From positions 21,345,365 to 21,409,364 of the forward strand of contig NC_092678.1 of the NCBI RefSeq assembly GCF_964355755.1: a stretch of DNA of 64,000 nucleotides. Reading direction: 5' to 3'. The DNA comes from Antedon mediterranea. Lineage: Eukaryota; Animalia; Echinodermata. Numbering within the stretch: the stretch's first letter is position 1; each line of letters begins with the position of its first letter. Made by a program: the position numbers and the translations under genes. The notes under the pieces were generated by a model, which did not search any database, was not told the origin of the DNA, and saw nothing but the letters and a program-made list of their open reading frames with translations. Positions 6,901 through 12,900 of this stretch are shown here, piece by piece.

Positions 6901-9900
6901 ATACACAATTTACACAACTGATAATAAATATGTTAAAAATATTCTCTTTCACCTAGATATTTTTTATATAAATTTTTAAAATATGATACTTAACACAATT
7001 TGTCAGATGTATGTATGGTGTTTGAAGTGCTTGGAAATAATCTGCTGAAACCAATCATACAATCTAAGTACATGGGAATGTCATTGCATATTGTTAAGAG
7101 TATAATACGACAGGTAAGATTCTTAATACACATTAATTTACAATTTATTCACGTTTTTATGGAACGCCAAATGGGCAAACTTGAGTAGTTGTTGTTGTTT
7201 ACCATGTTTTAACATTAGCCTATAGTAATGTATAATGTAATATATATTGATTGAAACATCAAGAAACTCAACAGTTCTTTTCAGAACTATATTTACGTGG
7301 ACCGCAAACTTTATATCAACATAGTTTTATTGTTCAGCAAAAATAGCAAAATGAATTTCCATTTTAAGTGAACCGATAAAAATTAATGTCTTGAATCTTG
7401 TTTTGTTGTTGAAATATTGACCTAACGTTTGTGTAGTTGGCGTTGTGCCTTACCATACTTCCAAGGCCCTGTAAATGAGTATTTTTAACCCTTTTATGTT
7501 TCTAGACTTTCTACCGTATCCCTGTGTATCATAATAATTATTTACTTTTTATCAATAATAGGTTTTAGAAGGTCTAGATTATTTACACACGAAATGTAAA
7601 ATAATACACACGGATATTAAACCAGAGAATATTCTAGTTTGTGTGGATGAACCGTATATAAGGAATTTAGCACAGGAGGCAAAGGAATGGATGCAGGGGG
7701 CTGCAAAACCTCCCATCTCTTCAGGTGAGTTATTTTATTATTTTTCTATTAACTTTTGTTTTATTTCAATTAAAGGAAGTGTATCACACTTGTTGACTAA
7801 GTCTTATTTGAGGCTTAGGGAGTAGTTTTAAAGTTGTAGGTTAAAACCCTGAGACTAGATGAAGATTGAACTCAGAACCCAGGGATAGGCAAGAAAGCAT
7901 GGTAATAACAAACCTACCACTACAATTTTACTAATAGCAATACGCTGTGAAAGCTACAATAGAAGCTCTCCGAACTAGACTAGTCTGTTGACGCTGTGAA
8001 AGCTACAATAGAAGCTCTCCGAACTAGACTAGTCTGTTGACGCTGTGAAAGCTACAATAGAAGCTCTCCGAACTAGACTAGTCTGTTGACGCTGTGAAAG
8101 CTACAATAGAAGCTCTCCGAACTAGACTAGTCTGTTGACGCTGTGAAAGCTACAATAGAAGCTCTCCGAACTAGACTAGTCTGTTGACGCTGTGAAAGCT
8201 ACAATAGAAGCTCTCCGAACTAGACTAGTCTGTTGACGCTGTGAAAGCTACAATAGAAGCTCTCCGAACTAGACTAGTCTGTTGACGCTGTGAAAGCTAC
8301 AATAGAAGCTCTCCGAACTAGACTAGTCTGTTGACGCTGTGAAAGCTACAATAGAAGCTCTCCGAACTAGACTAGTCTGTTGACGCTGTGAAAGCTACAA
8401 TAGAAGCTCTCCGAACTAGACTAGTCTGTTGACGCTGTGAAAGCTACAATAGAAGCTCTCCGAACTAGACTAGTCTGTTGACACTGTGAAAGCTACAATA
8501 GAAGCTCTCCGAACTAGACTAGTCTGTTGACGCTGTGAAAGCTACAATAGAAGCTCTCCGAACTAGACTAGTCTGTTCACTATTTTGTTATTAATATCAC
8601 TATCAAAAGCTTTGTCTACACTATCAAAAATATATGAATTGTCATTGTGACTTCGTGGAGAGCGGACGCGTTTTGGATTCGCTCCGCTAAGCTGCTAACT
8701 CCATGTAAATTGAGCAGCGGGTAATATGAATACCTAAACCTCCACGCCCAGGTGAGGCATGCATGCAATAGTTACCGAGCACGCTAAACATACTGAAGAT
8801 ACAATTGTACTGAAGGATAACTAATCGAATACAATATGGCAACAAAAACTAGATCAAAAGCGGACAGTGAAGACAAGTTGGACACAATTATAGGGAAACT
8901 AAAGAAACTGGAAATACTCGACGCCATTAACGAAAGGCTTGTCATTTTGGAAGAGGACTTCAAAAACATGTGGCAGAAGGTTAGGGATATGGAAGCATCC
9001 CAAGAATCACTACAGGCTAATTTAGATGAAAAGGCAGACTCGCAGGATATGGAAGTACTACAAAATCGGGTAGACGAACTGGAAAATAGGCAACGGAGGA
9101 ACAACATAGTTATTTTTGGCATTCCAGAGCAGTCGGAAGGTAATAACTGTTCAGATTATATTCTAGGATTCTTTAAAACATACCTGAAAGTGGATAGTAA
9201 TAGGCCTATGGACATAGAACGAGCTCACCGTACCCCGACATTCCTGCCCACAGGTGGTAAACGAGCCAAGTATCCGAGGCCAATACATATTGCCTTCAAT
9301 AAATTCACCGACAAAATTAAAGTAATGAAGGGAGCTGTAAACTTGAAAAACAGTCCCTTTTCTGGAAAAAAAGTTTGGATAACGGATGACTTTACCCCAA
9401 ATCTGAGAATAAAGAGGAAGCGGTTGTGGGCCAAACGTAAGAGACTGTTAGAGGAGAAACCCGGCAGAAAAGTTTTCTTAAATTACCCGGCTGTATTAAG
9501 AATTGTAGAAGAAGACGGAAGTTCGAGACTAGTGCAGTAAAATCTGTCTGTATAAGGCTGTAATTTAACTTTAAAAACATAACTCTGTGTCGCTATATGA
9601 TATATTAATTTATCCAACAATGTACTGATATTGTATGTATGCCTGTTAGGGGTATATCAGTGATGATTGTATTGATACTTATCTTTTTTCGCTACTTTTT
9701 TCGTTGCTTAAAAAAGAAAATTAGGCTATTATTATATTTGAAGAGAATTTATGTTTCGGGGGTATGGAAGGGGGAAGGATATACCGGGTTTTTTTATCCT
9801 TTGTTGGGTGGGTTTTCTTTGTTTCTCTTTTTTTATTTTATTTTATTTTTACTCTATAACAAAAAAAAACTGAACACATATGCTAATTTTAACACGAGGT

Positions 9901-12900
9901 ATGATCGAACAATTGGTAATCTGAATACAAAAGTAATACGCATTGCCACAGCACAGGGCTATTTTGGACTGCGATTACATACAAATTTTACTTTACCTAA
10001 TGATCTTGGAAAATGTAGTTGCCCACTGATAATTAATAATAAAAATTACTGGATACTTGAGGTTAATACTAATTACGACTCTTTCATTTCGGCCGGAACA
10101 TGGTGTATAGACATTGTTGGGCCCCTTAAAAACTTCAGAAAAAATACTGTTAAAATAAAAGAAAATATAGGAGAGCAATCAAGTAAACTTATAATCGTCT
10201 GTAATAAAAATTTAATTAACATAAAATGCAAATTTTACGAACGTAGTAAAATACAATGCAATAGAATCAGTCCGTTACTCATCGAAGCTAAAACAATTTT
10301 TGGACTGCTATGGTTTATGGTTGTTGCACAAAACAACCATTATGACACCATATATACCCTTGCTTTATTATTTTATCTACCGTTATATATAAACAAAATA
10401 AGTAAAAAAATAACAATAAAAAATGTCTAATAATAATAATACGCTATCAATAGTTTCAATGAACTGTCGAGGTCTAGCAGAAAAATCAAAACGCAGAGAT
10501 GTGTTACACTATCTAAAGTCAAAAAAATACAATATTATTTGCCTCCAAGATGTACACTTCTCGGCAGAAACTGAGTCACTTGTTAGATTGGAGTGGGGCC
10601 TTGATTGTTTTTTTAGTTCATATCGTAGTAATGCAAGGGGAGTCGCAATCTTTTTCAATAATAACTTTCCCTACACTGTTACAAAGCATAAAAAAGATAA
10701 TGATGGAAATATGTTAGCTTTGGAGGTAAAGGTTGACGATCTAAAATTTACGCTAATCTCAATTTATGGGCCCAACAACGACACCCCCGGTTTTTACGAC
10801 AAAATGAGGGAAGTTGTTTTAGAATATGAAAACCCACATAATATCGTTTGCGGCGACTGGAACTGTATTTTGGACAAAAAATTAGACTGTAAAAATTACC
10901 TAAAACTTAATAATCCAAAGGCAAGAGAAAAGATAATAAATATTTGTAGTGAATTTAATCTTACAGATGTTTGGCGTGTTTACAACCGAGATGAACAAAA
11001 GTTTACCTGGAGACAGAATAAATTCAATAAACAAGCCAGGCTTGATTATTTCCTAATCTCATCTGAACTAAACAGCAAAATGCTGGATTGTAATATAAAA
11101 CCAGGTTACCGAACCGATCACTCACTCGTAGATATTAAAATGACGATGAACCAGATAAAATACGGGCCAGGATACTGGAAATTTGACAATACCTTATTAA
11201 AAGATATTCAATACGTGCAACAAGTTAAAGAAACCATAAATAGAGTCCTAAAACAATATATAGTGCAAAACGAAAAAGATAATAAAGATGCTAATAAAGC
11301 GCTGTTTAGCATCAGTGATCAACTTCTTTTAGAAATGATATTAATGGAAATTAGAGCAAAAACAATTTCTTACGGGGCTTATAAGAAAAAGATTGAAAAT
11401 AAAAAAGAAAAAGAATTAGAAAGGGAAATAGAAAAAATAACACTTGATATCAATAAGGGCGACGCCACGTTAAATGGTACACTAGAAATTAAGTCCGGCG
11501 AACTTATGAGTATCAGAAAAGTGAAGATGGAAAGAATAATGATGAAAACTAAACTTAAATGGATCGAAGAAGGCGAAAGGCCGACCAAATTTTTTCTTAA
11601 TATGGAAAAGAAAAATTTTGTTGATAAAACTATAAATAAAATAGTAAAGGAAAGCAACAATAGTATTCTGCAAAACACAAATGAAATTCTTGTTGAGTCT
11701 AGACAATTTTATAAAAACCTTTATTCCTCAAACCACAATACAGATGATGAAAAAAATATTGTAAAACTTCTTAAAACTATGAATACATTACCAACATTAA
11801 CAAAAGAACAACAAAATAAAATCGAAGGGCCAATTACTTATAACGAACTTTTAGTGGCTCTTAAGAGGTCACAAAATGGAAAGTCACCTGGTATTGACGG
11901 CTTTAGCTATGAGTTTTTTAAGTTCTTTTTTGCGGATTTAGTTTACTATCTTTTGAGAGCTATTAACGAGTCGTATAACTCAGGTCAACTGTCAACTTCC
12001 CAAAAGTCAGGAATAATTACTTTACTCCCTAAGAGGGATAAACCCAGAGAGTATCTAAAAAACTGGAGACCTATTACCCTGTTAAGTGTCACTTATAAAC
12101 TTGTTTCGTCATGCATTGCAGAACGAATAAAATCGGTCCTTGATATATTAATTAGTGAACAACAGAAAGGATTTATTAATGGGAGATATATAGGCGAAAA
12201 TACAAGACTTATGTATGATGTTATTCAAATTTGTGAAAAGAAGAAAATCCCTGGTCTGCTTTTACTGATAGACTTTGAAAAAGCGTTCGACTGCATTTCT
12301 CACACATTTGTTAACTGCGTTCTTAAACATTTTAACTTCGGACAATCCATTCAAAAATGGGTGAAAGTACTATATAAAGATGCAAGATCCTCAGTTCTTG
12401 TCAATGGCTTTCTCTCCGAATCATTCTTAATCGAAAGAGGATGTAGACAAGGGGATGGGCTGAGTCCATACCTGTTTCTTCTGTGCGCAGAAATTTTATC
12501 CTCAATGATATCTGAAAATAAACAAATTAAAGGAATATCAATTGCAAATCATGAGTATCGATTATCTCAGTATGCGGACGACACTGTATTGTTTCTTGAC
12601 GGTAAAGAGAAGTCAATGCACGAAGCATTTAAGACTCTCGACGTATTTTCCAAAATTTCCGGGCTAAAAGTGAATGTGAACAAAACAAATGCTGTCTGGG
12701 TTGGCTCTTTTAAAGACCGAGGTGACTCAATATGCGAAAACTATAATATAAAATGGATCAAACATGGAGAACCCTTTGAATCATTGGGTATTCGGTTCAG
12801 TACAAATTTAAATAAAATGGTAGATTTGAACTATGAAGACGTATATAAATCAATTAAAAATACAATGAGACATTGGTCAAAAAGAAACTTAACTGTTTTG

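Follow-up and report, generated by a model that had tools for sequence, protein, structure and literature searches.

A third open reading frame ending on the ORF2 start codon of an L1-group retrotransposon from Antedon mediterranea: a candidate ribosome relay

How do ribosomes reach ORF2 of an L1 retrotransposon when a long spacer separates it from ORF1? This question is raised by an intact L1-group long interspersed nuclear element (LINE), located on the + strand at positions 8637-14675 of a 64,000-nt stretch of the genome of the echinoderm Antedon mediterranea (assembly GCF_964355755.1, contig NC_092678.1, positions 21,345,365 to 21,409,364; hereafter, the window). The long L1 spacer is probably ancestral, and access to ORF2 across it is an open question, for which the published proposal is a site of internal ribosome entry (IRES) predicted in silico (PMC5381506). 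The element of the window departs from the canonical bicistronic L1 layout, i.e. two long sense open reading frames (ORFs) separated by a non-coding spacer, as its spacer harbours a third open frame of 263 codons, designated here ORFX. It appears fairly probable, judging from sequence comparisons, that ORFX is a translated relay frame, which hands ribosomes to ORF2 by termination-reinitiation; the element would then be tricistronic in translation, and the ORFX protein would likely be a by-product under little constraint.

The open frame and its junction with ORF2

The spacer between ORF1 and ORF2 comprises 882 nt. The ORFX ATG lies 98 nt past the ORF1 stop, and the end of ORFX overlaps the start of ORF2 by 8 nt in a different frame (junction sequence AAAAAATGTCTAA). 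The ORFX stop falls, out of frame, within ~14 nt of the ORF2 AUG, and it is the overlap ATGTCTAA that gives this junction the geometry of stop-start coupling. Stop-free runs in the spacer reach 273 codons at most, with 20 and 28 stops in the other two frames, and the next in size among ATG-started ORFs of the window encode only 133 and 124 aa. The spacer was shuffled under five null models (mononucleotide, Markov 1, Markov 2, local 30-nt and local 12-nt; 3,000 shuffles each), and 0 of 15,000 reached 200 stop-free codons (maximum 186). Thus, the claims of a first-pass annotation of this DNA concerning the coordinates of the spacer and overlap, the lack of any rival long ORF and the improbability of such an open run by chance were all borne out.

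Within ORFX there are 12 out-of-frame AUGs and an alternative in-frame start (ATG 9663), and the preceding gap (9541-9638) carries three mini-ORFs of 3, 2 and 4 codons (ATG 9597, 9620 and 9635, respectively). The junction reads ATA AAA AAT GTC TAA, with an ORF2-frame stop at 10417-10419. An AAA-to-AAA slip would be possible between that stop and the ORFX stop, and ORFX might accordingly supply the N-terminal portion of a fusion with ORF2, produced by +1 ribosomal frameshifting on the A run before the ORF2 ATG. This is very improbable, since ORF2 retains a well-contexted ATG at the homologous start, while the corresponding frames of other families (described below) use both alternative frames, mostly without a slippery run, and some of them end upstream of the ORF2 AUG.

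Retention of the frame and the nature of its product

The element is present in ten public runs from three organisms, and contigs of six runs were aligned with it. Those of organism A are near-identical to the window element. The contigs of organism B (runs X6, X7 and X10) jointly cover ORFX and show the majority sequence, not single copies. Between organism B and the window, the 36 listed substitutions in ORFX (12.5 synonymous and 23.5 non-synonymous) introduce no stop codon, and an insertion at 10276-10282 (1+8+6 = 15 nt within 7 nt) is in frame and adds five codons, none of them a stop (hand-read from alignment tables). Among the differences listed, 1-nt indels occur only outside ORFX, and the contig losses at 9539 and 9555 indicate that the gap after ORF1 tolerates them. 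No difference is listed within ATGTCTAA in the organism B contigs covering 10423-10430. As far as the listed differences go, both the frame and the overlap are therefore kept in other copies, which was the first check named in the earlier annotation.

The ratio of non-synonymous to synonymous substitution rates (dN/dS) in ORFX is 0.53 (95% interval 0.26-1.15) without transition bias, rising to 0.69 (0.34-1.51) when this bias (kappa) is set to 3. In ORF1 (8836-9298), at least 8 synonymous and at least 2 non-synonymous changes, among the differences listed, give a dN/dS of 0.07-0.09. The contrast between the two frames, with ORF1 changes counted among the differences listed, is significant (Fisher p 0.012-0.028), and synonymous divergence is alike in both (0.06-0.08). 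It had been anticipated that a dN/dS below 1 would favour a protein and one near 1 a frame kept open for ribosomes; in fact, the interval includes 1 and the value is far above that of ORF1, while the point estimate remains below 1. The relay reading is favoured because the frame and the overlap are kept at a dN/dS so far above ORF1's. Weak protein-level constraint on ORFX may nevertheless exist, given the overall interval of 0.26 to 1.5.

Three side observations concern the same contigs. At 9539-9543, just past the ORF1 stop, four of four aligned runs, including the best-matching one, are one A shorter than the window. In run X7 of organism B, a diverged sister family links the end of ORF1 (9299-9539) to the start of ORF2 (10435 onwards) via a spacer with no alignment to ORFX. 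Finally, a contig of the putative RNA run X5 departs from the element at 9648, after the first 10 nt of ORFX, and continues as a loose end of 27 nt; the site is not a splice donor. A 96-nt stretch free of listed differences at the ORFX start (9595-9690) was considered as a possible signal and dropped, as it is expected from ~39 scattered changes (an estimate).

The first-pass annotation described four hydrophobic stretches in ORFX and offered an accessory membrane protein as one of two explanations, with the caveat that T-rich DNA encodes hydrophobic peptides by default. Such stretches are present, but there are three of them, not four, at a 19-residue hydropathy cut-off of 1.5, and three or more were found in 510 of 2,000 locally shuffled stop-free frames. 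The caveat was therefore well placed: because T-rich DNA yields equal hydrophobicity by chance, the membrane-like look is no evidence. The contents of Cys (0.027 vs 0.029 expected) and of F/I/L/V (0.376 vs 0.357) are close to the base-composition prediction, and acidic residues lie below it. An amino-acid composition G-test did not separate ORFX, ORF1 and ORF2 (30.5, 34.5 and 34.4, respectively).

Homology searches with ORFX gave no Pfam family, none of 981 candidates at E<=0.01 in a word-index protein search (lengths 144-461 covered) and no homologue among 1.84 billion representatives, and in the last two of these no donor gene was found. The Atlas returned no usable match (recognition 1439, under the 2300 mark), tblastn against 118 loci recovered only ORFX itself, and none of 46 candidates from viral contigs was a relative. 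A single-sequence AlphaFold model had a predicted local distance difference test score (pLDDT) of 49, with residues 77-218 below 50. Its Foldseek comparison with the PDB, a check suggested at the outset, produced no match (best E 0.1), a null that carries little weight because the model is of low confidence. There is thus no support for ORFX as a membrane protein.

A fast-evolving accessory (membrane) protein, directed for example against host defence and with the coupling to ORF2 secondary or shared, is still a reading to be weighed, and we regard it as unlikely. The dN/dS point estimate is below 1, marginally so at kappa 1 (p 0.036-0.055), and indistinguishable from neutrality at kappa 3 (p 0.14-0.2). 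None of the 22 ORFX residues altered in organism B is a Cys, yet radical replacements (G>R, L>H, N>I, R>C) are tolerated. A length of 263 codons far exceeds the needs of coupling alone, but ORFX, with G spread flatly over codon positions (0.17, 0.16, 0.14), lacks the first-position excess of ORF1 (0.30) and ORF2 (0.23), its hydrophobicity is matched by 25% of null frames, and it has no relative in the databases searched. The frames of other families, considered next, are unrelated to ORFX and to one another. One near-identical pair of loci (L024/L030) has a frame dN/dS of 0.2-0.3 on 7 changes, against which stands the neutral frame of another pair (L163/L168).

Junction-ending frames in distant elements and a proposed relay

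An ORF2 alignment search yielded 80 metagenome and 38 genome-collection loci, with ORF2 mostly 30-45% identical. A profile search returned 60 endonuclease N-termini. Excluded were 10 for lack of an ATG, 2 as second copies at one locus, 5 for having <300 nt upstream, 1 as a duplicate family (L030), 3 because ORF1 abutted ORF2 and 2 because ORF1 lay within 300 nt of it, and 36 loci and the window were kept. In each of them the longest stop-free run ending <=30 nt from the ORF2 AUG was tested. This junction run exceeded 30-nt local shuffles (p<0.05) in 22 of the 36 loci (21 with 4-mer shuffles) and lay above the shuffle median in 34. With three possible ORF1 tails (L029, L064 and L073) set aside, 20 of 33 passed, as did 9 of the 15 loci whose ORF1 stop was placed further upstream by inspection (combined p 1.6e-10). 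The excess is specific to the junction: with runs capped at 80 codons, true junctions reached 53-79, compared with means of 18-32 for pseudo-junctions placed higher up in these spacers and 18-38 for antisense runs. In a second set, 10 spacer-type loci were new and sufficiently flanked; 7 of these passed at p<0.05 (the related L163 and L168 among them), L124, L127 and L139 failed, and in eight further loci ORF1 itself reaches the junction. The closest relatives by endonuclease identity, L153 and L159, belong to this set and have frames of 113 codons and of 153 codons to the contig end, respectively. Among five probable non-LINE exonuclease genes (assigned by length; L128 checked), one passed.

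The runs also tend to begin with a start codon. In 32 of 37 junction runs, the first in-frame AUG precedes the median position of the null. Since an excess of TG could bias this null, a comparison was made with real antisense runs: an AUG lies within the first 30 codons in 29/36 junction runs and 35/81 antisense runs (p 2e-4), and the first 25 positions hold 36 AUGs per 900 in-frame codons vs 23 per 1800 out-of-frame codons. An early in-frame AUG is the signature that would be expected from selection on the AUG-to-stop stretch. The run ends at +8, +11, +14 or +20 in 20 of 37 cases and at +4 in four, positions that correspond to the AUGn(2,5,8,14)UGA and AUGA geometries of PMC5972666 and are partly fixed by the first codons of ORF2. 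Loci carrying junction frames are spread over deep branches of the tree, on which frame length does not cluster (86 of 500 shuffles as low), and no protein similarity was found between the frames of different families, except for the duplicate family. Frames of >=200 codons occur in only 3 of 43 loci (L050, L163 and the window). This recurrence of unrelated, junction-coupled frames across distant families is the second reason for favouring the relay.

An independent pair of related families (L163/L168), located in one other record, carries a 210-codon frame overlapping both the end of ORF1 and the start of ORF2 (+26). It has accumulated 67 changes, none of them a stop, and one 12-nt indel, at a dN/dS of 1.0-1.4, vs 0.24-0.30 in ORF1 and 0.09-0.14 in ORF2; L023/L024 were too diverged for this estimate and were left out. 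Synonymous divergence of the pair is 0.06-0.11 in the spacer frame, 0.19-0.22 in ORF1 and 0.58-0.67 in ORF2, and the low spacer value may reflect either nucleotide-level constraint or module exchange between families.

Other layouts were seen among these loci. Further long frames lacking a Pfam match lie in the spacers of two loci (L050:145-909, 249 codons; L053:2203-2865, 221 codons); in L053, the long frame is followed by a 109-codon frame ending 6 nt before the ORF2 AUG. A long ORF1 running up to the ORF2 start, without a spacer, was found in L052, L096, L102, L154, L155, L158, L166, L169, L171, L174 and L175, where ORF1 identity was judged by length and composition. The ORF1 proteins of five related loci contain a NADAR domain (PF08719, E 1e-21 to 1e-44; Table 1), and four of these loci also have the longest spacers (0.9-1.7 kb); NADAR and transposons reportedly also occur together in PMC12477816.

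The following course of events is proposed. Beyond the ORF1 stop, some small subunits would remain on the transcript and, having traversed or skipped the three mini-ORFs, reinitiate at ATG 9639 or 9663. The 12 out-of-frame AUGs, at which a scanning subunit would be caught, would then be crossed by elongating ribosomes. These would end translation at TAA 10428-10430 and move backwards by several nucleotides onto the ORF2 AUG, in the manner of SART1/calicivirus coupling. Two inefficient reinitiations would hold ORF2p scarce relative to ORF1p. Of the two explanations advanced in the first-pass annotation, it is the delivery of ribosomes to ORF2 that agrees with a frame open in organism B at a dN/dS of 0.5-0.7 and with the recurrence in distant families, while the membrane protein has gained no support.

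It is also conceivable, if rather improbable, that ORFX is a repressive overlapping upstream ORF (uORF), diverting ribosomes that enter the spacer through an IRES or on a shorter RNA, with ORF2 reached by leaky scanning. Overlapping uORFs are generally repressive (PMC10275272), IRES activity has been predicted in long vertebrate spacers (PMC5381506), of the 37 runs that have >=50 codons, 31 extend past the A of the ORF2 AUG, and long spacers are incompletely bridged by the frame. However, a nearby AUG would suffice for repression, leaving 50-270 open codons unneeded, a scanning subunit would face the 12 out-of-frame AUGs within ORFX, and an Rfam scan of 8500-10700 gave no match. Moreover, a megabat L1 with an AUG-free spacer transposes less than the intact element, in a study that found the long spacer inhibitory in human cells and states that no reading frame has to be preserved in it (PMC4072516).

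Several points weigh against the relay. Two successive reinitiations after long ORFs would be very inefficient, and the start context of ATG 9639 is weak (TGTATGC). Reinitiation has also been called inefficient for long spacers (PMC5381506). No termination upstream ribosomal binding site (TURBS) motif 1 (UGGGA, sought 40-90 nt upstream) lies within 120 nt of the window junction, and such a motif occurs in only 4 of 53 loci; none of four stretches taken from the spacer and junction forms an unusually stable RNA fold (z +0.40, -1.56, +0.05 and -0.37). The full bridge is not general, because five spacers measuring 1.0-1.7 kb are covered by the frame at their 3' end alone (the last 53-90 codons). 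The chance of no stop in the L163/L168 frame is 0.07, and the L024/L030 ratio and the ORFX point estimate are below 1. In organism B, no single contig spans ORFX; ~4-5 differences near 9773-9860 (T-rich) are counted without listed positions and could include a stop, and one in 10327-10445 is likewise counted. With only ~4.5% divergence between organism B and that of the window, a neutral frame would escape a stop over 36 changes with a probability of 0.13-0.23, and would survive with one of ~0.04-0.08 when the in-frame insertion (factor ~one third) is included.

These last figures also speak for a chance or decaying feature, namely a piece of a captured gene that has yet to erode or a consequence of A-poor composition. 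That explanation is largely refuted, and the slimmest of those considered, by the shuffles of the spacer, by the junction-specific recurrence with early AUGs across deep branches and by the failure of the homologue searches to find a donor gene.

A wider and more tentative possibility is that long-spacer L1/Tx1 elements are generally tricistronic, with an AUG-led relay ORF of free sequence ending on the ORF2 start in place of the IRES model, the longest relays forming a nursery of weakly selected membrane-like proteins. A frame selected for its openness and its start and stop positions, not for its product, would be a different and directly testable answer to the question of access to ORF2 and, if true, a clear case of an ORF selected for translation rather than protein. 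Relay frames would be a possible source of de novo genes, and their resemblance to multipass membrane proteins calls for caution in annotation.

The element, its setting and known systems

The features of the element are collected in Table 1. With its APE-RT ORF2, L1-type ORF1, poly-A and probable target-site duplication, it is, by predicted products and ends, a non-LTR (long terminal repeat) retrotransposon of the L1 group (L1/Tx1). Among solved structures, ORF2 is closest to human LINE-1 ORF2p (E=9e-92; R2 E=2e-24). ORF1 has a modest match to human LINE-1 ORF1p in the PDB (E=1.4e-4) and falls into L1 RRM clusters of the Atlas (0.93). The flanking duplication is A-led and 11 nt long. The insertion lies in sense orientation within an intron of an SRPK-type kinase gene, with exons at 7009-7113 (E 7e-9 to SRPK2) and ~14817-14962 (the second identified by eye), and carries its own poly-A signal. 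A 49-bp x 13 tandem array (99% identity, 7942-8577) is situated 60 nt upstream; it was considered as a 5' promoter array of the LINE and rejected, because the duplication sets the 5' end at ~8637 and leaves the array outside.

Table 1 Features of the LINE in the window and NADAR-bearing ORF1 loci
Feature	Position	Strand	Remarks
Left copy of probable target-site duplication (AAAAATATATG)	8626..8636	+	longest match (11 nt) between poly-A end and 6500-8700; duplication status inferred
5' untranslated region (UTR), 199 nt	8637..8835	+	deduced from duplication and ORF1 start
ORF1, 234 aa, coiled coil and L1-type RNA recognition motif (RRM)/C-terminal domain (CTD)	8836..9540	+	
Gap between ORF1 and ORFX, non-coding, 98 nt	9541..9638	+	
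ORFX (third open frame), 263 codons, proposed ribosome-relay ORF	9639..10430	+	
Start-stop overlap ATGTCTAA, AUG-n2-stop geometry	10423..10430	+	
ORF2, 1276 aa, APE endonuclease and reverse transcriptase (RT)	10423..14253	+	Pfam PF03372, PF00078
3' UTR	14254..14675	+	AATAAA at 14644; 29-nt poly-A 14647-14675
Right copy of probable target-site duplication, fused with poly-A end	14671..14681	+	
NADAR-bearing ORF1 loci	L012:184-996, L016:531-1964, L019:17-1363, L020:284-1141, L053:398-2125		

The literature search found no description of a LINE spacer carrying an open frame coupled to ORF2, with most subscription journals, Repbase reports and the supplements of PMC5381506 and PMC4072516 outside its scope. 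Among the closest known systems are the L1s of fish, frog, lizard, marsupials, afrotherians and megabats, which share with the window element a short 5' UTR and a long AT-rich and T-rich spacer (257-1,032 nt, vs 882 nt here); unlike the spacer of the window, theirs are treated as non-coding in the main accounts of PMC5381506 and PMC4072516, where no open frame is mentioned. A third ORF is known from primate L1 elements, namely ORF0; it is antisense, 71 aa long and located in the 5' UTR (PMC5203782), whereas ORFX is sense, 263 aa long and placed between ORF1 and ORF2. The AUG-n2-stop overlap is shared with SART1 and with calicivirus and influenza B coupling, for which the geometries AUGn(2,5,8,14)UGA and AUGA have been named (PMC5972666). 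Those systems differ in that a conserved functional gene supplies the upstream ORF, and the window junction has neither the TURBS UGGGA nor an outstanding downstream structure, in contrast to calicivirus-type coupling. Human LINE-1, also of the L1 group, provides a functional likeness: translation of its ORF2, by termination-reinitiation, is proposed to require that an upstream ORF, whatever its sequence, be translated to completion (PMC4091050). In human L1 it is ORF1 that has this place, with a spacer of 63 nt, whereas in the window an extra 263-codon frame overlaps the ORF2 AUG. ORFX is a real feature and a probable variant of the known LINE termination-reinitiation coupling, in which the extra spacer frame is the new part.

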